DNA from: an uncultured virus (IMG/VR IMGVR_UViG_3300027808_002699)
Taxonomy: Duplodnaviria > Heunggongvirae > Uroviricota > Caudoviricetes
DNA: 64,000 nt
Strand: one strand, 5' to 3'
Virus record (IMG/VR): IMGVR_UViG_3300027808_002699
Below, one piece after another: positions 22 to 63,102 of the stretch. Position numbers and translations under genes: made by a program. Numbering within the stretch: the first letter of the stretch is position 1; each line of letters starts with the position of its first letter. The notes under the pieces are model-generated. The model saw nothing but the letters and a program-made list of their open reading frames with translations. It searched no databases and was not told where the DNA came from.

Positions 22-741
22 TTAAAGTCCGTTTGTCTTAAAGGCAACCCAGCCACAGAAGTTATATGACTGCCAAAAGCGCTGAATAGTGAACCCAGCA
101 TCCTTGAGCATTTGCTCATTGGCTAGTTCCGTCTGGGATACCATAACATTCTCCAACGACATACGCTTTTGTTCAATAGCATCTAGTGAATAGCCGTTTT
201 TGTGCTTCATGGCGTGATATGTGGAAACAATCGTCTTCTGAGCGATATCTGAAGGGCAGGTGATTTTTTCTAAAAATACCAGCACTCCATTGGGGCGCAG
301 GGTTTTATGCATTTTCTTAATAATGGATGGTCGATACTCCATTGGAATGAACTGAAGAGTGAAGATGCTTAGAATCACATCAAAGTCATCCGAGAACTTG
401 GGGAATACTGATTCCTGTTTGACATCCCAGTTAATCCAGTAACAAGATTCATCCTGATAGTTGAGTCTTGCCTTCTCCAGCATGGGTTCAGAATTATCAA
501 GACCGATATATGTATTAATATTTAAATTAAAATCAGTTAATGATTTGTAAGCCTGACCATCACTGCAACCTATGTCCAGAATGTCTAAATTCTTTCCTTC
601 AAAGTATGTCTTCAGCAGGAGTGCTACTGATTCACGCATCCATTCATGTCCAGGAATTGAACGGTCAAGCATATTCTCAAACACCTGAGCGACATCATTA
701 TTGAATTCCCATTTTCCTTCTGGAAATGTCTCATCAATCAC
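22..741 (-). CDS. cmoA: CmoA-like carboxy-S-adenosyl-L-methionine synthase (class I SAM fold)
   Basis: Motifs collinear with bacterial CmoA along the whole length: WEF..DVAQVF.NML.RSIPG, DIGCS.G, DNS..M, FTLQF, EK, NGYS...I.QKR..LENVM, AGF....W.Q.YNF. Confidence 0.85.
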   Translation of the reverse strand: MIDETFPEGKWEFNNDVAQVFENMLDRSIPGHEWMRESVALLLKTYFEGKNLDILDIGCSDGQAYKSLTDFNLNINTYIGLDNSEPMLEKARLNYQDESCYWINWDVKQESVFPKFSDDFDVILSIFTLQFIPMEYRPSIIKKMHKTLRPNGVLVFLEKITCPSDIAQKTIVSTYHAMKHKNGYSLDAIEQKRMSLENVMVSQTELANEQMLKDAGFTIQRFWQSYNFCGWVAFKTNGL

Positions 742-2288
742 AGTTCTATTCCCAACCTCTTGCTGAATGCTGCTTTTGCCTCTTCTGCCAGACCAAGGCG
801 CTTATCGTTCGGATGAGGGAGGTCAAACTCAAACTCTAGAGCGGCTCTCAACTTATCGATATCTACTGGATGGGGTCTCTTGGCAACTGCCTGAATTAGA
901 CCATTCTTGGCTGTCTCAAATACATCTACATGCTTGAAGCCTTGAAGCCACAGTTCTTTCCATTCGGTTTCTGAATGATACTTCTGCACTTTTGGCTTCA
1001 GTGAGATATCGGCAACAATAATTCGAGGTTCGTAGTCAAGAGGAAATCCACCACTTGAAGTGTCGTGGCCTTTCTTGACATCACCATGAGCATGATTATG
1101 CCATCTGTCTGAATCTGTGCTAATTACCGATGCATAGACTGCGCTGTTCTCCGAACAAAGAGCAGAGATGATGGCGACAATGTGAAGACGGTCTTGGTAG
1201 AAAGGAACGCTATTGAGAACGCTTGAAATAAAGATTGATGAGAACTTGGTTCCATCTGCTACGCGGCTTAGGAAATGCGAACACAGTTTTCTGGCAGCAT
1301 CGGTATCGATTGTTTCTGCATCGCCAGCAAGAAAGAATGGTTCGAATGGGGTGCAGTCGACACCCACAATATTATTTAGAATGTCGGTCTTGTCGCACAA
1401 TCCAGCACCAAAGTCAATTACATGTTCTCCGTAGTAACGCTTCCACAGTTCAATGTGCTTTGGGTCATCCAGGTGGAAAGCAGCATTTCTATTTCCAGAT
1501 GGAACATGATAGCGAAGCATGTCTTCCAGGAATGTTGGAGTAAGGATTTGTACTCTTTGGTTCTTTCGTCTGAAAGAGTTATACCTGAGCAAGTCTGCAT
1601 ATCTATCTTCAAGATTGAAGTCCATAGAAATTAGATTCATCATCGCCGTTACTTCTTCAGAAACATCAGAAGATACTTTTACGGTATCGATGAAATCGAC
1701 CCCACCCTGAGATACAAAAGTAAGTCTTGCTCTGCCATTAAGAACTTTTAGTTTGTCATCTATGATTACTGGCATCATCGGGAGCCCGCTTGACTTCAAC
1801 TGAGAAGCCATAACAATGCCATGCTGTTCAGTCCATCTGTCATTTAACTTCATTAGCCTGAGAACTGACTCTGGACGAAGTTTAAGTACTGGATACCATT
1901 CTGGTGTATCTACTTGGATACTAGGAAGAAGTTTTACTCTCTCAACTACATCCTGCTTTTCGCGCATAGTCTCAAGAAGGTCGCGAGATGAGGTGTTCTT
2001 TTTAATATCGTTCGTAGCGCGGTTATAAAGAACATTTATTCCCATTCGTCTTTCGATGGGCAAAGGTTTTACATAGATAACTGGAACCTTTGTAGCACCC
2101 AATTCTTTAGCCATTAGATGGCGTTGATGTCCTGAAAGGATTTCACCATTGGAGTCTGCATAGATGGGAAGAAGCCAACCAAACTTCTGAAGAGATAACT
2201 TAACTAGGTCAAGTCTTTCTCTATCCGCTTTTCGTGGGTTATATGTAGATGGTTGAAGTGAATCAATATCTACAAGTATTGGCTTCAT
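738..2288 (-). CDS. ParB/Srx-like N-terminal domain(s) fused to a SAM-dependent methyltransferase-like domain
   Basis: N-terminal YNPR...SL.KFG...PI....ILSGHQR (ParB/Srx); a second degenerate copy (PVIIDD...VLNGRARL); C-terminal DFGAG motif I and ISSVLNSVP motif. Confidence 0.7.
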   Translation of the reverse strand: MKPILVDIDSLQPSTYNPRKADRERLDLVKLSLQKFGWLLPIYADSNGEILSGHQRHLMAKELGATKVPVIYVKPLPIERRMGINVLYNRATNDIKKNTSSRDLLETMREKQDVVERVKLLPSIQVDTPEWYPVLKLRPESVLRLMKLNDRWTEQHGIVMASQLKSSGLPMMPVIIDDKLKVLNGRARLTFVSQGGVDFIDTVKVSSDVSEEVTAMMNLISMDFNLEDRYADLLRYNSFRRKNQRVQILTPTFLEDMLRYHVPSGNRNAAFHLDDPKHIELWKRYYGEHVIDFGAGLCDKTDILNNIVGVDCTPFEPFFLAGDAETIDTDAARKLCSHFLSRVADGTKFSSIFISSVLNSVPFYQDRLHIVAIISALCSENSAVYASVISTDSDRWHNHAHGDVKKGHDTSSGGFPLDYEPRIIVADISLKPKVQKYHSETEWKELWLQGFKHVDVFETAKNGLIQAVAKRPHPVDIDKLRAALEFEFDLPHPNDKRLGLAEEAKAAFSKRLGIEL

Positions 2289-3604
2289 TACTCATCGCCC
2301 TGACGGCGCGCACTCTTCTTTTTTGACTTACGCTGACGAGTACATACCCATGAATCATCTGGCAAGCCGAGCAATTCAATTATTCCACCACATACCTCAT
2401 CGTAAGAGTATCCATAGTTATCGAACATATGCTCTTCCCACTCATCAAAGAACTTGCGTTCAAACTTAATTTCCCACTTGCCGACGATTGCAGTGACATT
2501 TCTGTCTTTGTCAATATCATCCGAGTTATTCGTTGGCTTTTCCTGAAGGCCCCACCCAGCAACTTCTTTAAGAAGGTCATCAACATCGTCTGGTGAATAT
2601 CCAGTTCCTTCAAATGATTTCATGTCTTTTAGAATGTCGACAAGACCAACATGGTCGTATGAGCCAAGGTCAGCAGTGCGATTATCTGCAAGAACAATAC
2701 GAGCAGCCGCTTCATCATCCACTTCAACCCAGGAAACAGCAATCTCGCGCCAGCCAAGCATCTTGGCGGCCTTCCATGTGTGGTTTCCGACAAGGATTGA
2801 ATTGTCTGTTTTGTTTACAACGATTGGTCGAAACTGACCATTCTTTGAAAGCGATTCAGCGATTAGTCCTACATCTCCTTGACGAGCATTCATTGGGTAC
2901 GGGAATACGCTATTAATATCAACAGTATTAACCTCAAGCATTGAGGTCTTACTTTCTTCTTTGATGATTTTCTTTTTAACTGGCCTGCCGCTTCGAGCCT
3001 TTGCAGGAATCGGAGTGGCATCAGTAAGGTTTAGTTTCTTACGAATGTACTCTTCGACTTCTGTGTAGTTCTGCTCTACATCGCTTGCCCATCCAGCATA
3101 AACATCGTCATCGACTAGGCATCGGTATGAACCTACGCAGATACGAACTTCTGTTCCTACGGCTCCAGTACGAGTGCCATTAGGTGCTTCAAATAAGCCA
3201 CCGCCATCAAAAAGGGAATTAAGTTGGTCAATATCTGTATCTGTGAATCCAGTTCCCTTTAGGTCGGGAAGTGATTGGAGAAGTTCAAGTAGTTTTGAGT
3301 CATCGTAGATTGACATATCAGATGTACGGTTGTCAGCAAGCACAATGCGGGCGGCTTCTTGGTCATCTACATCTACCCATGAAACAGCGATAGTTGTCCA
3401 TCCAAGAGACCTAGCGGCTCGCCATGTATGGTTTCCAGCAAGAATCGCATTGTCGCGGCGATTGGCAACAATGGGCTTGTACTGACCATTTACTTCGAGA
3501 GACCTAGCAATCTCATCCACATCACCACGGCGGGGATTCTTGGGATAAGGCTTCAGTTCGCCAATTGCTACTGTCTCTGTACTAACTCTAATATTTGCAT
3601 CCAT
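2288..3604 (-). CDS. Protein with two tandem ParB/Srx-like domains
   Basis: Two close copies of P(K/M)N.R.GDV..IA.SL..NGQ..PIV.N..DN.IL.GNHTW.AA..LGW..IAVSWV.VDD..AARIVLADNRT. Confidence 0.85.
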   Translation of the reverse strand: MDANIRVSTETVAIGELKPYPKNPRRGDVDEIARSLEVNGQYKPIVANRRDNAILAGNHTWRAARSLGWTTIAVSWVDVDDQEAARIVLADNRTSDMSIYDDSKLLELLQSLPDLKGTGFTDTDIDQLNSLFDGGGLFEAPNGTRTGAVGTEVRICVGSYRCLVDDDVYAGWASDVEQNYTEVEEYIRKKLNLTDATPIPAKARSGRPVKKKIIKEESKTSMLEVNTVDINSVFPYPMNARQGDVGLIAESLSKNGQFRPIVVNKTDNSILVGNHTWKAAKMLGWREIAVSWVEVDDEAAARIVLADNRTADLGSYDHVGLVDILKDMKSFEGTGYSPDDVDDLLKEVAGWGLQEKPTNNSDDIDKDRNVTAIVGKWEIKFERKFFDEWEEHMFDNYGYSYDEVCGGIIELLGLPDDSWVCTRQRKSKKKSARRQGDE

Positions 3605-3625
3605 GATGCATTAGTATAGTCGTTA

Positions 3626-24908: not shown

Positions 24909-25973
24909 CTAATTAGACCTTAACTCATACCATCCCTTACCCCATAGGGATAAGAGGCGTGTGAAGTATTGCTCATACATGATTCCGACAGCATCAAGGC
25001 CATAACGGTCTTTTGAGTACTGGCTGATTGCTGCTCGGTCAAGGTGTTTTGCGGCTTCGGCAGCATCGACAAACTCTTGAAGAGTGTGACATCTGAACCC
25101 AGTAACGCCATCAATGACGGTTTCTGTGAAAGCGCCCCAGTCAGTTGATATCACTGGAGACCCACAAGCCATCGCTTCGATAGCAACAGTCCCAAAAGGC
25201 TCTACATAAATAGTGGGTGTAAAGGTGGCGATTGCTCCACCCATTAACTTGGCTCGCTCTTCTGTTCCGACAACGCCGACATACTCGCCGTACTCTGGCG
25301 GTACACCCTGTCCAGCAATCACCAGACGCTTTCCTAGGGCTTTACAGACCTCAACTGCAATCTGATAGCCCTTACGCTCAATTAAGCGTCCTATGTACAG
25401 GTAGTAGTCGTCTGGTTCTTCCTGTAAAGGGAAGTCCTTAACATCAATATAACTTGGAATAACGGTGTCAAAGAACTTGCCGTCAAGGGCATGGGGGTCG
25501 GTAACTTTGGAGCCATAGCAGGAGTGCATCCATGCGTAGGACTCAAATACCTTGTAGTTGGCAAACGACCCACCATAGCCAATCCCAAACTCCACGCTTA
25601 GTTCGTCTGGAAATGCGTCAGCAATTGGCTTAGAGGCATAGCCAGCGATAAGGCAAATAAAGTCCTTATGCTCTAGGCGCTCCTTAATGCCTTCAATTAC
25701 ATTGCCATTGAATGTCTGCCAGTGCGGAAGATTCCAGTCAAAAGAAGCGGCTGAGTAATGCCCGCCACCGACAGCCTCTAAACGCTGTTCTTCGGTAATG
25801 CACATGATGTGCTCGTCACAAGGGGCTTCGTTGAACTCCCCACCATAGAGAAAGACGGTATGACCGAGGTCTTTCATCATTATGCAAAACTTGCGGACTT
25901 TTTCCGTATAGGCACAGGCGGTGAAGTCCTCTGTCGTGTTCGTATGGGGCAAACTAACTATATGAAAGCGCAT
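24909..25973 (-). CDS. Glycosyltransferase, GT-B fold (family 4-like)
   Basis: YIGRL.ERKG, EPFG.V.IEAMACG.PVI.TD.GA..E.V.DG.TGF. Confidence 0.92.
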   Translation of the reverse strand: MRFHIVSLPHTNTTEDFTACAYTEKVRKFCIMMKDLGHTVFLYGGEFNEAPCDEHIMCITEEQRLEAVGGGHYSAASFDWNLPHWQTFNGNVIEGIKERLEHKDFICLIAGYASKPIADAFPDELSVEFGIGYGGSFANYKVFESYAWMHSCYGSKVTDPHALDGKFFDTVIPSYIDVKDFPLQEEPDDYYLYIGRLIERKGYQIAVEVCKALGKRLVIAGQGVPPEYGEYVGVVGTEERAKLMGGAIATFTPTIYVEPFGTVAIEAMACGSPVISTDWGAFTETVIDGVTGFRCHTLQEFVDAAEAAKHLDRAAISQYSKDRYGLDAVGIMYEQYFTRLLSLWGKGWYELRSN

Positions 25974-30504: not shown

Positions 30505-31299
30505 TTATCTCCACCGCTTAATTAGACTGTTGATTAAGCCCTGTTTGGTGTTCTCTAGTTTTTTGTCCACCCGTGTTCGTTCCCGCCTGTATGTGGCTCC
30601 TGTTTCCCTAGGGGAAACAAATCCTGAACCGAATCCAGTACTTGCGTAGTACTTGAAGTCTGATTCGTCATTAAACAAAACTTTTGTAAAGTCAGAGTCT
30701 CTCTTGAACGGAATAAGTTGAGCAATCGGAGTGTTGTATTTAAGTGAAAAGGGTCTATCGCCTATTAGGTTTAAAACAACATTCACGGAGTGATAATAGT
30801 CTGTATGAACAATTGCTGGGACAACGGTATAGTCTTCGCTGGGTTCCCAGTAGCAAGGAACTATTAGTGTTGACCATCCTGGAGCGGTCTCTATTCTCCA
30901 AGGGTTAATTAATTTTGGATACTGCCCTGTTTCTATTTTACGCACACTAGTCATTGGACACTCACCAGTGGATTCATGGTTGAAGCCCGATGCTTGTCCA
31001 ATAGATGTTGGTTGCCCTCCAGTCACTGCTGAAGGATAAAAGTCATCTGCGCCAGTTTCCCATGTACCATTATTGTCTGGACGAAAACGATAGTTTGTCC
31101 ACATTGGAAGAGTTACGCCAGCCGCAAGAAGGTCAATAGTGCCAACACATTTCCGCAATCCTGCGCCTTCTTTGCTGATACGCCTAAACCAGTCTGGCAA
31201 ATTTGTTAAATTGTTTGCAAATGGGGCGGACTCCATGAGTCTGTTGTCTGTCGGAGTAAAGCGTATTTCTCCTGGTTTAACTTTGGGTTTTTTTTTCAT
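30505..31299 (-). CDS. Conserved phage protein of a family often found near 2OG oxygenases (DUF6065-like, possibly dUTPase-like fold)
   Basis: KC.G..D....G..LP.W, K..NPW.I.T.PGWS.L, P..V.TD.Y, TPIAQLIPFKR. Confidence 0.55.
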   Translation of the reverse strand: MKKKPKVKPGEIRFTPTDNRLMESAPFANNLTNLPDWFRRISKEGAGLRKCVGTIDLLAAGVTLPMWTNYRFRPDNNGTWETGADDFYPSAVTGGQPTSIGQASGFNHESTGECPMTSVRKIETGQYPKLINPWRIETAPGWSTLIVPCYWEPSEDYTVVPAIVHTDYYHSVNVVLNLIGDRPFSLKYNTPIAQLIPFKRDSDFTKVLFNDESDFKYYASTGFGSGFVSPRETGATYRRERTRVDKKLENTKQGLINSLIKRWR

Positions 31300-31300
31300 T

Positions 31301-32794
31301 TTAACTCCACTCTTCATCAACTAATTTTATTTCTCTCAAGGATTGAGCATGGTCAACCAAAACATGGTCATGTCTATAGTGTTTATAGTCGTTCAATTGT
31401 CTCTCTACTGCCTCGCGTAAATGAAGAGATTCAATCACTCTCGTACATGCATCCATATTGATAATTCCCTGCCCTTGCCCAACATGTGTTAGGTGTGGCG
31501 CAGCAAACATTTCCCCATGATTATTGGAAAAGTCGTATCGTGTTGGCGGACGCTCAGACCACAAGTCAATAATTTCTTGTAATTCTGAGTTTACTGGCAT
31601 GTGTGACATTTCTTGCCAAAACTTTGAATCTTGTCTGTCGCCATAATAATGCAGTCGTATCATTGTCAAGATATTGCGCATCATCTCGTTTGAACTCTTA
31701 TTGTAATGTTTTTGAGAAGCCGTATGGGATGGAAGATATGAAGCAAGATACGGGATAGCCGCTCTTACTTGCTGAATTGTAGAACCAATACTGGTTGCCT
31801 CTAATGGTTCAACAAAAGAAGAAGCCAAACCAACAGCGATACAGTTTTTTTGCCAAGGCTCTTTCAAGTGCCCAGCATCAAATTTAATTATTTTTGGGTC
31901 TTCAGGAAGTTTATATCCAGACATTTGTTCTGCTTCCCGAATGGCCTCTTCTACAGAAATGAACTCATCGGAAAATACATAACCGTTACCTCTGCGTTCT
32001 TGCGTCGGAATTTCCCACATCCAACCAGAACTTGCTGCCCGCGCCCTCGTGTATGGGCGTATTTGTCCATTCGGGTCGCTTTCTGTCGGGAAAGCAATTG
32101 CTGTATTGCAAAGCAAAAATTCACTAAAGGAACTCCACTCTGCATTGCCAACTTCTTTCATCAACACTTTGCTGAACCCAGATGCATCAAACCAAAAATC
32201 AGCCTCTACTGCATCGCCTTGTTCTGTGAGAACAGACTTGATAAGACCGTCTTCGTCTTTTGTAACAGACCCAACTTCTCCATCAATAAATTTAACATTC
32301 CTTCTAAAAGCAAGTTTTGTAAAATACTCGTTTAGTTTTACTGTGTCAAAATGGAACTGATTGGTGTTCTTGTGCAAGCCTTCTCTATTGATTTTGTTGC
32401 GTACCATGCCAACGCTTGATGTTTGGCTTGTAAGTGTTTTACCAGATTCAATAATTCCCATATAGGCCGCAAAAAAGCCGTAACAAAAAATATCGTCAAC
32501 ATGGCCAACGCTGTGAAAGTAATCTTTTGTATGCGTGGTCCAATTTTCGTAGCGTATTCCATACTTGTGGGTAGCCAGCGTCTCTATCAACATCTCCTCA
32601 AGAGGGATATCTACTAGTTCCATAAACTGTTTCCAGTGTTCCGTGGAACCCTCTCCCACTCCAATAATACCAATCTTGGAAGATGACAGTACTGTTATCC
32701 CACAAGTTGGGAAAGCCCTACGCAAAATAAGTGCAGTTATTAGGCCTGCAGTTCCTGAACCCACTATGCCAAAGTTTTGTAAACGGTCTTTCAT
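31301..32794 (-). CDS. Flavin-dependent halogenase, tryptophan halogenase family
   Basis: GSGTAG FAD motif, IGVGEGS, AT.KYGI (catalytic Lys position), DASGF, GWMWEIP (WxWxIP), GNGYVFS, FVEPLEATS. Confidence 0.93.
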   Translation of the reverse strand: MKDRLQNFGIVGSGTAGLITALILRRAFPTCGITVLSSSKIGIIGVGEGSTEHWKQFMELVDIPLEEMLIETLATHKYGIRYENWTTHTKDYFHSVGHVDDIFCYGFFAAYMGIIESGKTLTSQTSSVGMVRNKINREGLHKNTNQFHFDTVKLNEYFTKLAFRRNVKFIDGEVGSVTKDEDGLIKSVLTEQGDAVEADFWFDASGFSKVLMKEVGNAEWSSFSEFLLCNTAIAFPTESDPNGQIRPYTRARAASSGWMWEIPTQERRGNGYVFSDEFISVEEAIREAEQMSGYKLPEDPKIIKFDAGHLKEPWQKNCIAVGLASSFVEPLEATSIGSTIQQVRAAIPYLASYLPSHTASQKHYNKSSNEMMRNILTMIRLHYYGDRQDSKFWQEMSHMPVNSELQEIIDLWSERPPTRYDFSNNHGEMFAAPHLTHVGQGQGIINMDACTRVIESLHLREAVERQLNDYKHYRHDHVLVDHAQSLREIKLVDEEWS

Positions 32795-32801
32795 GATTTT
32801 C

Positions 32802-33386
32802 CTATCCTTGATACCAAGTAACAAGCGAATATTTCACACCTGCTGTTACAGGGTGTGCAATGTGTAGATACGGAAAGTTCGATGGAAACAAAATAACTCT
32901 TCCGCATATTGCTTCAACACTAACATCAAAATGGGGGAACTCTAAATGTCCCCCTTCTTCTGGGGTGGACAGAAATGACACCATGCTGTACACCCTGCGA
33001 TTATCTGGAGCATGGTCATGATGTGGTTTGTATTCAGATTGTTCTAAATACTTCAAAAGAGAATATCCCTCATGCATCGCAGTTGGAATTAAAAATTCAT
33101 GTCTGTAATCTTCCGACGCTTCTTCAATCGGATTTCTAATTTCTTTTGTAAAAAACCGCGATAATTCAGTTTCGGGGTACGGTTTCATTAGTGGGATTAG
33201 AGAACACGACAGGGAAGTTCTATAAGAAGTCGCCTGCCCTGACCCTACAGAAGAACCATCCCATGACAATTCGGACCATTCTGAGCCTGTTTCTTTTTCC
33301 AGACTATTTAAAAACTTGTTTGCTTTGTCCGCAGTGAATACATCCTCATAAAGAGATATGCATGTTCCTAGTTTTGTATGTTTCAT
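32802..33386 (-). CDS. 2OG-Fe(II) oxygenase, prolyl-4-hydroxylase-like
   Basis: LLKY....Y.PHHD (HxD), GG.L.F, FPSNFPY.H.A.PV..G.KYS.VTW. Confidence 0.92.
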   Translation of the reverse strand: MKHTKLGTCISLYEDVFTADKANKFLNSLEKETGSEWSELSWDGSSVGSGQATSYRTSLSCSLIPLMKPYPETELSRFFTKEIRNPIEEASEDYRHEFLIPTAMHEGYSLLKYLEQSEYKPHHDHAPDNRRVYSMVSFLSTPEEGGHLEFPHFDVSVEAICGRVILFPSNFPYLHIAHPVTAGVKYSLVTWYQG

Positions 33387-33781
33387 ATTACGATGAAATC
33401 TCCTTTATAATATGTCTCACCGTTATTATCAACAATATCGAACTGATGTAAACCTAGCGTATAGAAGCGTGAACGGAATCTAAGAGAATGTTTTGTAATA
33501 ACCATCGGCTTTATTGTTTGAGCAATAGAACTCGAGTCCATCACCACCATGTGTGTATTCCTCGGAAAATCAATAAATTCATTTGTAATGTCTAGCATGT
33601 GTATAAAGCCCACTTTTACTTCGTCCATACAGTCGGTAAAATCGTCTTCTGGAAAAGACTTAATACAAATTCTGTCAATATCTTCTTCTATACGAATCGA
33701 TAATTGAGACTCTCTTGACAGTTTTATTGCTTCATCTGGCACGCCACCCATACTGGCTGGCACGCAAACAAATCGCTTCAT
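33383..33781 (-). CDS. Hypothetical protein
   Basis: 132 aa; 4-nt overlaps with both neighbours. Confidence 0.65.
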   Translation of the reverse strand: MKRFVCVPASMGGVPDEAIKLSRESQLSIRIEEDIDRICIKSFPEDDFTDCMDEVKVGFIHMLDITNEFIDFPRNTHMVVMDSSSIAQTIKPMVITKHSLRFRSRFYTLGLHQFDIVDNNGETYYKGDFIVI

Positions 33782-58758: not shown

Positions 58759-59286
58759 CTAACTAAAAGGATTTCCTTCTGCCCATGCTACTAGCGCCCA
58801 TCGTTCACCAGAAGTTACTGGAGAAACCTCATAAAGAGTCCATGATGGCCACACAACAGCAATTCCGCGTTCTGGAGTTATAGCAATACTATCTGCTCCA
58901 GTATGCAAAAACACATCACATCCAGAATAATCATCTTTTTCTGACAACTGAATTGTCATAAAGAGTTTTCTGCGGTTTTTACCTGCTGACCAATCTGTAT
59001 GCGCTTCTTCGTAGTCGCCATCCCTATAACGAATTATTTCAATAAATATATTGGTGTAGTAGAAATGAAGATAGTTTCCAACAACAAACACTTTTCTAAT
59101 ATGCTCATAGAGACCAGAAAACTTATTTTCGTCTATAGCAAATTTACGAGTCAAATTATTTGACTTATATGATTCTTGAGACTGAAGGGCAAGGGATATG
59201 ATTTGTTCACATTCTTCCGATGTGAATACAGATATCTCGCTTGCTATTCCTACTAAATTGGGATTTTTTCTGTGTGTATGATGCAT
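58759..59286 (-). CDS. 2OG-Fe(II) oxygenase-like protein (PKHD-type), distal His replaced by Tyr
   Basis: FT.EEC..II, Y..GD....HTD, RKL...IQLS...Y.G, PSW.LYEV.PVT.G.RW.LV.W. Confidence 0.85.
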   Translation of the reverse strand: MHHTHRKNPNLVGIASEISVFTSEECEQIISLALQSQESYKSNNLTRKFAIDENKFSGLYEHIRKVFVVGNYLHFYYTNIFIEIIRYRDGDYEEAHTDWSAGKNRRKLFMTIQLSEKDDYSGCDVFLHTGADSIAITPERGIAVVWPSWTLYEVSPVTSGERWALVAWAEGNPFS

Positions 59287-60765: not shown

Positions 60766-61203
60766 CTACTGCGGCGGCAACCTTTTGGTAAGATTGAGAC
60801 GCTCTGCCTCAGCGGGATTATCGTGTTTCCAGGTGTGATGCGCTCGGCACAACACCTGACAGTTGGATGCGTCTAAATGGGAACCGCCTCTGCCGCGTGG
60901 AATAATCTCATCGACATCTAATGGTCCCCAACATTCTATTAAGTTTACAATATGCTTTGCTTGACATTGCATATGGTCTCTCAATAGAACTTCTATTCTA
61001 ACAACTTCCCTATCTCGCATTTGCGATTTAGTTTTTTTGCTAAACATGTTGACTGGACCCCTTTTCATAGAAGAGGGGCGGTCTTCACATTCATACACTC
61101 TAGCGATTCCATCCGAATAAACACGCAAAGAACCATAAATAGGGCAATTTTCTTTAGAACAGTTCTCTTTTCTGCCTTCACATTCACCTTTTCTTTTATT
61201 CAC
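60766..61203 (-). CDS. HNH endonuclease (terminase-associated)
   Basis: RD...CQ.....C.G.LD..EI.PR..GG......N...LCR.HH..KH; directly downstream of TerL. Confidence 0.8.
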   Translation of the reverse strand: MNKRKGECEGRKENCSKENCPIYGSLRVYSDGIARVYECEDRPSSMKRGPVNMFSKKTKSQMRDREVVRIEVLLRDHMQCQAKHIVNLIECWGPLDVDEIIPRGRGGSHLDASNCQVLCRAHHTWKHDNPAEAERLNLTKRLPPQ

Positions 61204-62528
61204 AATATGATTCTTACCTTTGTTTTGTTGTTTTTACCGACTAATGCCTGTATAGCGCCTGATACAGCATCAACTTGGTCATCGTGCGCACCATATGGGA
61301 ATACTTCGCATTCGTCAATTAAAATGCTGTTCCATCCTGCTCGCATAACAAATACATTTCCAGATTCAGATGCTGAAGAAAATACTGAAGCGCGTTCTTG
61401 TTTAGAACCAGATGCTCTGATTCCGCGAAAGTTATAACCTTGTAAAACAGTTCGTGCGTAGTGGTCAATAACATTCACTCCAGATGAACCTGGTTCTTGC
61501 TCCATGATAATTGCTGTTCCAATTCCGTCACGAGATGCAGTTTGAGTAATCTTTTTTTCTACTTCGTATGGAGTACCACGCATACGCTCAATGTCCAAGA
61601 TGAAGTATCTTCCATCCTTCATTCCAACAAGTGCGCCTACCGTCCAGTCAGGGTCATTGCTTTTTGTTTTTACAGTTGCCGCCAAGTCCCAGTATCTAAC
61701 TGTTTTCATTCCTTCTGGAATATTGCCAGTGATTTGAAACCAGTCACCCTTAAACATTCCGCCTTCTTCGCGGATGTCCCAGTTACCATCAAGCAGTCGT
61801 GAACGCTCTACATAGTCAAGTTCATTAAGACCCTTGATATACGCTTCGGCATCAAGAGATGGGTTATCACTAATTCTTGAAGGCATAAACTTTCGCTCTG
61901 TGCTTTTGTTAAGAATGAAACGCTCGTACACCCAGTTGTTTCCAGGACCACCTGGGTTTGTCGCTCCTCTTGTTCTAAGAGGAATGTCTGCTGCTGTTAA
62001 TCCACAATCAGGACATGCTTTCATGTCTGCTTGGACTGCTGGCTTACGAACACGAGAGAACCCAACATAGCGATAAACGCGGTCAGTCTTCCACTGTGTT
62101 AATTCGTCTACTCCAACAAAGTGATAAGCAAATGACTGGAACTTATAACGGTCCTCATCTCGTTCACAATGGTCAAAAGAAAGCATTGCTCCAGAGGGGA
62201 ATGTCCAACGCTTATTGGTTACGGAATATGTAGCGCCACTTCCAGCAAGCCATTCGTTACAACGGTCGATAAAACCGTCTGGTCCAGAAAGTTGTGGGTA
62301 TGTCTGACGCAAAAGAAGCGCCGAATACCCAGGGATACATACATACTGAAGAGCACTTAGTAGGAGAGTGTCAGACTTTCCACCACCAGCGGCTCCACCA
62401 AATAGTGCTTCTCTAGTCGTTCCCCATGTCAGGAACGCTGTCTGCTTCGGGTGAGGCGTGTGGGGAAGCCTCAGTGCGCACGGCTGTTTCCAGTCCGTTA
62501 GTGTCGATAATTGGTCCCGTGATGTCAT
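61200..62528 (-). CDS. terL: Terminase large subunit
   Basis: GGAAGGGKS Walker A, VDELT Walker B, ATNPGG.G..WV, WDLA, EQEPGSSG, FP.G.HDDQVDA. Confidence 0.97.
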   Translation of the reverse strand: MTSRDQLSTLTDWKQPCALRLPHTPHPKQTAFLTWGTTREALFGGAAGGGKSDTLLLSALQYVCIPGYSALLLRQTYPQLSGPDGFIDRCNEWLAGSGATYSVTNKRWTFPSGAMLSFDHCERDEDRYKFQSFAYHFVGVDELTQWKTDRVYRYVGFSRVRKPAVQADMKACPDCGLTAADIPLRTRGATNPGGPGNNWVYERFILNKSTERKFMPSRISDNPSLDAEAYIKGLNELDYVERSRLLDGNWDIREEGGMFKGDWFQITGNIPEGMKTVRYWDLAATVKTKSNDPDWTVGALVGMKDGRYFILDIERMRGTPYEVEKKITQTASRDGIGTAIIMEQEPGSSGVNVIDHYARTVLQGYNFRGIRASGSKQERASVFSSASESGNVFVMRAGWNSILIDECEVFPYGAHDDQVDAVSGAIQALVGKNNKTKVRIIL

Positions 62529-63102
62529 CTATAACCTCTGCATCAATAGTGCCGTCCCATGCATTAAGAACATTGTTTGGCAGGTCTCCTGCTTCGACAA
62601 GTGCTGCAAGTACGGCGCGTTTTCTATCTTCATCTTCAACAAGAGAATGTCTCATCTCTGTTTGTATTGCTCCACCGCCAAGGCCAGTAAGTTCTACCTT
62701 GAGGGTATTTGAGTCACCCCATTCATCAGGCCAGCGCTTAGCAAGGAATGCTTGAGCGGCTTTCCAGTCGCCTTGACGGGCTTCTCTAAACCAAGAGACC
62801 ACAAGACCTGCTTGTGCTTCTGCTTCGGCCTTCATCATGCTTTGCACGAATTCAAGATATGGGGCTTCTAGTTTGGTTGGTGCTTCACCTTGTTCGATGC
62901 GCCACTGTTCTTCTGAACCGCGCTTAACCCATCCTGATACTGCTGACTTAGAAATACCTGCTGCCTGCGCGGCCATTGAAGGACGCATGCCTGCACGAAT
63001 CAAATCCACAATGGTTGGACCCAAGATTTCACAAGTTGTGACTTGAACTCCACCAATTTTTCGTGGTGCAGCATCACCGACAGCCTTTTTCCGCTCAGCC
63101 AT
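62413..63102 (-). CDS. terS: Putative terminase small subunit
   Basis: HTH (AAQAAGISKS.V..W..RG), AEAE, DWKAA..FL..R.P.EWG; directly upstream of TerL. Confidence 0.7.
   Translation of the reverse strand: MAERKKAVGDAAPRKIGGVQVTTCEILGPTIVDLIRAGMRPSMAAQAAGISKSAVSGWVKRGSEEQWRIEQGEAPTKLEAPYLEFVQSMMKAEAEAQAGLVVSWFREARQGDWKAAQAFLAKRWPDEWGDSNTLKVELTGLGGGAIQTEMRHSLVEDEDRKRAVLAALVEAGDLPNNVLNAWDGTIDAEVIDDITGPIIDTNGLETAVRTEASPHASPEADSVPDMGND

Follow-up and report, generated by a model that had tools for sequence, protein, structure and literature searches.

We analysed a 64,000-nucleotide stretch of DNA (hereafter the window) from an uncultured virus, IMG/VR record IMGVR_UViG_3300027808_002699, and focused on a three-gene cassette that is a candidate system for the carboxymethylation of phage DNA. 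The cassette opens a viral contig of 74,733 bases found in freshwater metagenome runs. The contig is that of a tailed phage, with portal, capsid, tape measure and terminase (61200-63102) genes. The features of the cassette are as follows.

22..741, minus strand: CmoA-like protein, 239 residues, GTG start (open reading frame list; TIGR00740; phrog_4752).
738..2288, minus strand: ParB-ParB-S-adenosylmethionine (SAM)-fold transferase, 516 residues (open reading frame list; phrog_5475).
2288..3604, minus strand: tandem ParB-like protein, 438 residues (open reading frame list; PF02195 in two stretches).
3613..3618, minus strand: -10-like TATACT box, 8 nt upstream of the first ATG.

An earlier interpretation made from the letters alone (hereafter the sequence-only reading) had described three translationally coupled genes behind a -10 box (TATACT). 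The open reading frames bear this out: the ParB and transferase genes overlap by 1 nt (TAATG), the transferase and cmoA genes by 4 nt (GTGA), and the box runs from 3618 to 3613. Of 17 close relatives, 12 have TATACT 7-8 nt ahead of the start, their spacers being different, and the remaining five have it 28 nt upstream, together with GAGGA. Since its position is kept in relatives with differing spacers, the box is more than a chance occurrence. A sigma-70 scan did not call TATACT and found no -35 element, and its 17 sites were at chance level (15.4 expected). Placed 8 nt from the ATG, the box would yield a near-leaderless mRNA. All three genes are under purifying selection (ratios of non-synonymous to synonymous substitution, dN/dS, of 0.035, 0.020 and 0.094 for the tandem ParB, transferase and cmoA-like genes against the relative L246, with dS near saturation). 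No indels were listed across contigs of four runs from four studies, one of which is possibly the source sample. No RNA run was listed among the 20 runs with the contig, which has no bearing on expression. Since the contig ends 21 nt past the cmoA stop codon, genes downstream of cmoA are not visible here; in L246, whose transferase is 95% identical, small unannotated genes follow cmoA.

The sequence-only reading had referred to a phage CmoA reported with a C5-type carboxymethyltransferase. This system is real: the S-B43 proteins CmoA, CmoX and CmoY give 5-carboxymethylcytosine and its glycine amide (PMC12783734). In the window, the 239-residue protein is likely a carboxy-SAM (Cx-SAM) synthase, as judged from its homology to proven enzymes. 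TIGR00740 is by far its best NCBIfam match, at full length (E-value 2e-41; 142 bits against a cut-off of 193), and PDB entries 1im8 and 4gek match it with E-values of 2e-31 and 1.5e-27. These family and structure matches support the earlier CmoA assignment. No CmoB was named in Pfam and PHROG scans of the larger open reading frames of the contig, in agreement with the sequence-only reading, and the transferase gave no family or structure match to CmoB. The arginine of the QKR motif is kept as had been claimed, since R193 of the window protein aligns with R199 of Escherichia coli CmoA (4gek), which binds the carboxylate through a salt bridge (PMC3663124). Of the ten other cofactor contacts (Y39, D62, G64, S66, D89, N90, D117, N132, F137 and E164), eight are kept and two, Y39 and N132, are not. 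The value of this arginine as a marker is weaker than had been supposed, as the proven S-B43 CmoA has Glu at the R199 position; loss of R199 was accordingly dropped as evidence against Cx-SAM synthesis.

The transferase matches phrog_5475 ("unknown function") along its length (E-value 1e-90). It consists of a ParB domain (residues ~1-110), a degenerate second ParB domain (~130-224) and a class I SAM-fold domain (~225-516), and its AlphaFold model has a predicted local distance difference test score of 92. Thus, the ParB fusion seen by the sequence-only reading stands, whereas the single ParB domain does not: motifs and model indicate two ParB-like domains. The NG..R and N.L.M motifs are conserved. 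A PF02195 domain with a GxxR-type box assigns the ParB parts to the ParB-CTPase fold; the PF02195 score of the transferase itself (23.4) is below the gathering threshold of 26.3, but 74 of 79 family members match PF02195 at E<=0.05. The two motifs singled out earlier are present, DFGAG at 292-296 and SSVLNSVPF at 355-363, and R235, DFGAG, EP (316-317), NSxPF (359-363) and DR (366-367) are invariant in 164 aligned rows. With DFGAG as motif I, E316 as the acidic residue of motif II and structural Z-scores of up to 14, the domain belongs to the Rossmann-like, seven-stranded class I SAM fold. CmoX and related C5-cytosine transferases are marked by an SPPC catalytic cysteine, an ENV motif and Arg350. 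Neither the PC nor the ENV motif of C5 methyltransferases is found in the sequence, as the sequence-only reading had stated, and a profile of four CmoX-type proteins matched nowhere in the contig, consistent with the absence of a C5-type partner.

Methyltransf_23 matches 27 of the 79 family members, and the ESM Atlas neighbours are unnamed clusters of the Methyltransf_23 type. Sequence searches of solved structures matched only the ParB parts, as did methyltransferase profile models, and Foldseek against viral models returned only generic ParB and methyltransferase matches. An origin of the SAM-fold domain as a duplicate of cmoA was ruled out, as a profile comparison with CmoA shares motif I only (probability 17%). 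The family is large: the scoring of 8000 candidates gave 691 clusters at 90% identity, and at 50% identity there are 419 representatives (E <= 1e-10). It was found by alignment-based searches; a search of IMG/VR with the single transferase protein returned nothing.

Linkage between the transferase and cmoA across phages had been set beforehand as a test of the sequence-only reading, and the linkage held. We collected 163 transferase-centred loci, from three cultured phages, the best 80 of 404 IMG/VR loci and the best 80 of 176 GTDB loci. Of the 143 loci with at least 2 kb downstream, 139 carry a cmoA-like gene (a truncated one in L107); such counts are not independent, the loci being related and partly redundant. 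Seven of the other 20 loci, with less than 2 kb downstream, also carry one. In a second, partly overlapping set of 80 loci ranked by likeness to the distant SM1 protein, cmoA occurs in 67 of 68, namely all 17 of the SM1 clade and 50 of 51 elsewhere, and the exception has cmoA elsewhere on its contig. The carriers include genome bins labelled Actinomycetota, Cyanobacteria, Proteobacteria, Verrucomicrobiota, Chloroflexi and Bacillota-type genera, and 14 records of cultured phages, among them Gordonia phage Evaa, Aeromonas phage HJ05, and Pseudomonas phage SM1 and its kin. A terminase gene follows the cassette in at least 88 of 118 loci with at least 4 kb downstream, though not in the clade of the window phage. 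In Aeromonas phage HJ05, a DAHP synthase gene lies three genes after cmoA, just past the terminase (L002:6257-7420); it was seen in this locus only among those fetched. As the entry step towards prephenate, this enzyme could raise the prephenate supply.

The transferase and CmoX alternate beside cmoA. A search of viral loci with aligned CmoAs of the transferase-linked kind gave 556 loci; among the best 80 of these, 40 carry the transferase, 29 carry a C5-type gene (23 strongly CmoX-like and six distant), none carries both, and 11 carry neither, several of these being cut by a contig end. The Fisher p-value for this mutual exclusion, 9e-13, is overstated because the loci are related. C5 genes ~4 kb upstream in five of the 163 transferase loci have the ordinary motifs YPCQ and GNAV and were left out of the CmoX count. 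A CmoA tree was built from 81 of 215 rows, reduced at 75% identity within each label and omitting rows shorter than 205 residues and unnamed loci with neither partner. It implies 14 partner changes, nine of them forced by well-supported branches, and the grouping of all transferase-linked CmoAs in one clade is rejected (p-AU 7e-6); the tree has long branches and comes from a quick LG+G4 search. Sister pairs cross the partner types (Evaa with TurkishDelight, L131 with Mcat8), and the CmoA-like protein of the window is nested among CmoX-linked phage CmoAs.

The exchange is most directly visible in near-identical phages. L213 (HAD-ParB-ParB-transferase-cmoA) and L233 (ParB-CmoX-orf-CmoY-orf-cmoA) share 94% DNA identity in cmoA and in the 5.1 kb downstream, and their upstream cassettes cannot be aligned. 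Comparison of L213 and L187 with L233 and L243 shows that the whole modification cassette plus the terminase gene has been exchanged around the shared cmoA. In the CmoX version (L233 and L243), unannotated genes of ~310 and 293 residues flank CmoY. Since the same CmoA serves either partner, the transferase likely consumes Cx-SAM as CmoX does, and we regard this partner swap as the best evidence of such use at the level of sequence. Elsewhere, cmoA is followed in six loci (L183, L201, L216, L221, L197 and L231) by more distant C5-type genes lacking the usual SPPC/GR pattern, and in Alcaligenes phage Afa-NA1 (L165) it has neither partner within 5 kb, with an annotated DNA adenine methylase 2.5 kb away. 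These genes are possible further types of CmoA partner.

We favour, with moderate confidence, the view that the cassette carries out post-replicative carboxymethylation of phage DNA by the ParB-fused transferase with carboxy-SAM supplied by the CmoA-like protein. In this scheme, the CmoA-like protein would make carboxy-SAM from SAM and prephenate, the class I transferase would move the carboxymethyl group to a base nitrogen in replicated phage DNA, and the tandem ParB protein would activate or load the transferase. DNA is suggested as the substrate by the ParB fusion, the position before the terminase and the replacement of a DNA enzyme, CmoX.

A different reading is that the transferase is an ordinary SAM methyltransferase and that its CmoA-like neighbour drains SAM or prephenate or makes another SAM derivative. 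Half of the linked CmoA-like proteins lack R199, no donor-selecting arginine was identified in the transferase, and two of 58 family members weakly resemble TIGR04096, an uncharacterised putative methyltransferase. However, the proven S-B43 CmoA also lacks R199, and Mcat8 and TurkishDelight have CmoAs of the KE and KA types next to CmoX-type genes. An enzyme that only methylates has no need of a cofactor gene, yet cmoA accompanies nearly every transferase. We therefore consider an ordinary methylase improbable.

The ParB proteins point to a loading function in the favoured DNA carboxymethylation scheme. The 438-residue protein consists of two copies of a unit made of a ParB nucleotide-binding domain and a small C-terminal domain (PF02195, E-value 1.7e-16). 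The two halves are 42% identical over 206 residues, indicating a whole-unit duplication and substantiating the double ParB protein of the sequence-only reading. A separate ParB gene lies near 175 of 198 transferase loci. In a distant homolog, P0364, a further ParB domain is fused to the transferase, making three in all as read by eye from the motifs; another homolog, P0369, carries an intein-like insert within the N-x-T-N-D motif of its first ParB domain, also read by eye. A phage T-dioxygenase that modifies DNA needs a ParB partner on double-stranded DNA (PMC13229309), a precedent for the accessory role in DNA modification that had been proposed for ParB. Since that enzyme depends on ParB and the distant homolog has an extra ParB domain fused to it, the tandem ParB protein is predicted to be, and likely is, an activator or loader of the transferase. 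Phage ParB fusions are mostly with predicted DNA methyltransferases, and ParB-Methyltransf_23 fusions are listed as enriched in phages, without CmoA (PMC12704722).

The ParB domains also allow a free-nucleotide route, in which the modification would be made on a nucleotide held by these domains and then incorporated, while a HAD-like neighbour edits the nucleotide pool. Both ParB domains of the transferase keep nucleotide-binding motifs, and a gene for a HAD-like protein of 135-165 residues occurs in 139 of the 163 loci with the transferase, whereas the 29 C5-type cmoA loci have no such gene (e.g. L076:2282-2698, L039:8576-9061 and L001:2633-3115). Against this route, the HAD-like gene is missing from the window contig and from most loci of its closest relatives, its motifs look degenerate (DLNYT, TARP, AIESN), and prophage-like loci within bacterial genome bins make up many of the carriers. 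Moreover, the nucleotide-binding residues of ParB are apparently dispensable for the ParB-activated dioxygenase (PMC13229309). A free-nucleotide route is thus very improbable.

As to the acceptor under DNA carboxymethylation, the absence of the PC cysteine excludes C5 chemistry and argues for direct transfer to a heteroatom. Exocyclic amines are stable sites compatible with base pairing, and the likeliest acceptor would be such an amine on adenine or cytosine, within a limited motif. This assignment, which the sequence-only reading had put forward as a possibility, is one that we make weakly. An N6-CH2-CO- adenine adduct is tolerated in phage Mu DNA (PMC7261163). No target motif emerged when word frequencies in 43 transferase loci were set against those in 18 C5-type loci (over 256 words, the smallest uncorrected p was 0.005). 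The sequence-only reading had likened the transferase to an amino-type methyltransferase. The fold searches, which led to METTL6 and small-molecule N-methyltransferases, do not establish this label, and we keep it only as a guess that is rather doubtful. The invariant N-S-V/I-P-F resembles SPPF but in the model follows a short helix after the strand at 351-355, instead of strand 4 directly. The canonical (D/N/S)PP(Y/F/W) motif of N6-adenine and N4-cytosine methyltransferases sits directly after strand 4, and N-S-V/I-P-F also fits the generic helix after strand 4 in small-molecule and RNA methyltransferases. Tentatively, with somewhat less than even expectation, the family may be a natural N-carboxymethyltransferase for DNA that forms N6-carboxymethyladenine or N4-carboxymethylcytosine, with a non-canonical class I fold and four-ParB loading, in hundreds of phage lineages across several phyla.

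The fold matches bear on whether the acceptor is DNA at all. In a structure alignment of the SAM-fold domain alone (VIA-align), METTL6 is the top match (Z 13.9, root mean square deviation 3.2, 196 residues aligned), followed by many small-molecule or peptide N-methyltransferases at Z 11-12.7, with 10-16% identity. No DNA amino-methyltransferase, C5 enzyme, CmoA or CmoB is among the top 50 matches, which does not amount to exclusion. These neighbours, together with the lack of a recognisable target-recognition domain and the purging of four restriction-type sites from the genome (described below), would suit a transferase that uses carboxy-SAM on a non-DNA acceptor, such as host tRNA or other RNA (at a ring nitrogen), a protein (the terminase or a host defence protein) or a small molecule. 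However, the flat Z-scores and low identity mean that the fold match sets the fold class and not the substrate. The transferase also fills the slot of the DNA enzyme CmoX, with a ParB neighbour and a position before the terminase, and the predominance of predicted DNA methyltransferases among phage ParB fusions (PMC12704722) points the same way. We consider a non-DNA acceptor unlikely.

The contig contains no AGCT, GATC, ACGT or CCGG, against 256, 210, 140 and 120 expected, and it also lacks GGCGCC, CTTAAG, GACGCC/GGCGTC and ACGCGT. Of 19 tabulated loci at close or middle distance, 18 lack AGCT, and the other words vary by lineage. The purging of 4-mers is partly common to this clade (L004-L018, L246 and L019-L080) and is not seen in Evaa, SM1 or L117. 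Avoidance of sites cut by host restriction enzymes likely explains the purged words. Any mark is thus no blanket shield against restriction, and a partial or motif-limited modification would still allow the purged sites.

This absence of a shield is one of several observations that weigh against DNA carboxymethylation. The CmoA-like protein scores below the curated threshold, Tyr39 and Asn132 of the E. coli enzyme are replaced in it by His and Ile, and R199 is found in only 74 of 146 transferase-linked CmoA-like rows. A carboxylate-binding arginine could not be placed in the transferase. R240 and R241 are near-invariant in close rows but are kept in 94 and 86 of 108 distant representatives, as against 105 of 108 for R235, and all three could bind SAM or phosphate rather than a carboxylate. 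The closest folds belong not to DNA enzymes but to METTL6, which methylates a ring nitrogen of RNA, and to N-methyltransferases of small molecules. Four of the 143 loci lack an adjacent cmoA; one of these bins has a strong match elsewhere, one a partial match and two none, one of the latter being a 6-kb fragment. A CmoY-type ligase is absent from the 163 transferase loci. The non-independence of the locus counts and the provisional nature of the CmoA tree belong here as well.

Other genes of the contig may be mentioned in their own right. A cytochrome P450 gene (28312-29523, plus strand; Pfam E-value 2e-30) lies on the opposite strand, among tail genes. A tryptophan halogenase-like gene, a neighbouring 2OG-Fe(II) oxygenase gene and a second such oxygenase gene are found at 30505-33781 and 58759-59286 (minus strand), and a glycosyltransferase gene at 24909-25973.

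DNA modification with carboxy-SAM was first demonstrated in 2025, for one enzyme class (CmoX). If DNA carboxymethylation by the transferase is correct, a second, unrelated enzyme that trades places with CmoX would provide a new natural DNA base or adduct and a new DNA-modifying branch of the class I transferases. It would also offer a test case for the function of orphan phage ParB proteins and possibly a tool for adding a carboxyl handle to DNA. The presence of the cassette in cultured phages (Evaa, HJ05, SM1 and kin) makes the proposal testable. A search of full-text literature, which covers few subscription papers, found nothing on this enzyme or pairing, so that an earlier mention in print is possible; it turned up no work on DNA modification in the cultured carriers and no relevant passage in the MetaGPA paper. 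The CmoX authors reported that a preliminary search gave no N6- or N4-carboxymethyltransferases with phage CmoA (PMC12783734).

Among known systems, the S-B43 CmoA-CmoX-CmoY system shares with the cassette a phage CmoA without CmoB, an adjacent SAM-fold transferase, a ParB protein often nearby and common CmoA lineages. Unlike CmoX, the transferase lacks the marks of a C5 enzyme (SPPC, ENV and a match to the CmoX profile) and carries two fused ParB domains; a HAD-like gene is often nearby, and CmoY is not adjacent in any of the 163 loci. The bacterial CmoA-CmoB pathway, which forms cmo5U34 in tRNA, has in common the CmoA fold with R199 and a class I SAM-fold partner that transfers a carboxymethyl group to a heteroatom; here, the partner is not CmoB, the context is a phage, and ParB is fused. 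As in the ParB-dependent phage T-dioxygenases (PMC13229309), a ParB protein with a nucleotide-binding and a small C-terminal domain stands beside the modifying enzyme, but the catalytic fold differs, and the cassette has a ParB protein in duplicate as well as two ParB domains within the enzyme itself. METTL6, which forms m3C32 in tRNA, and the small-molecule class I N-methyltransferases are the closest solved folds (Z 13.9 to 11), and in contrast to the transferase they have no ParB domains and use methyl donors, at 10-16% identity. Finally, the product of phage Mu Mom, N6-methylcarbamoyl-adenine, is the amide of N6-carboxymethyladenine, a candidate product here (PMC7261163). Mom binds acetyl-CoA and iron in the scheme of that paper and does not have a SAM fold; no homology is implied between the two systems.

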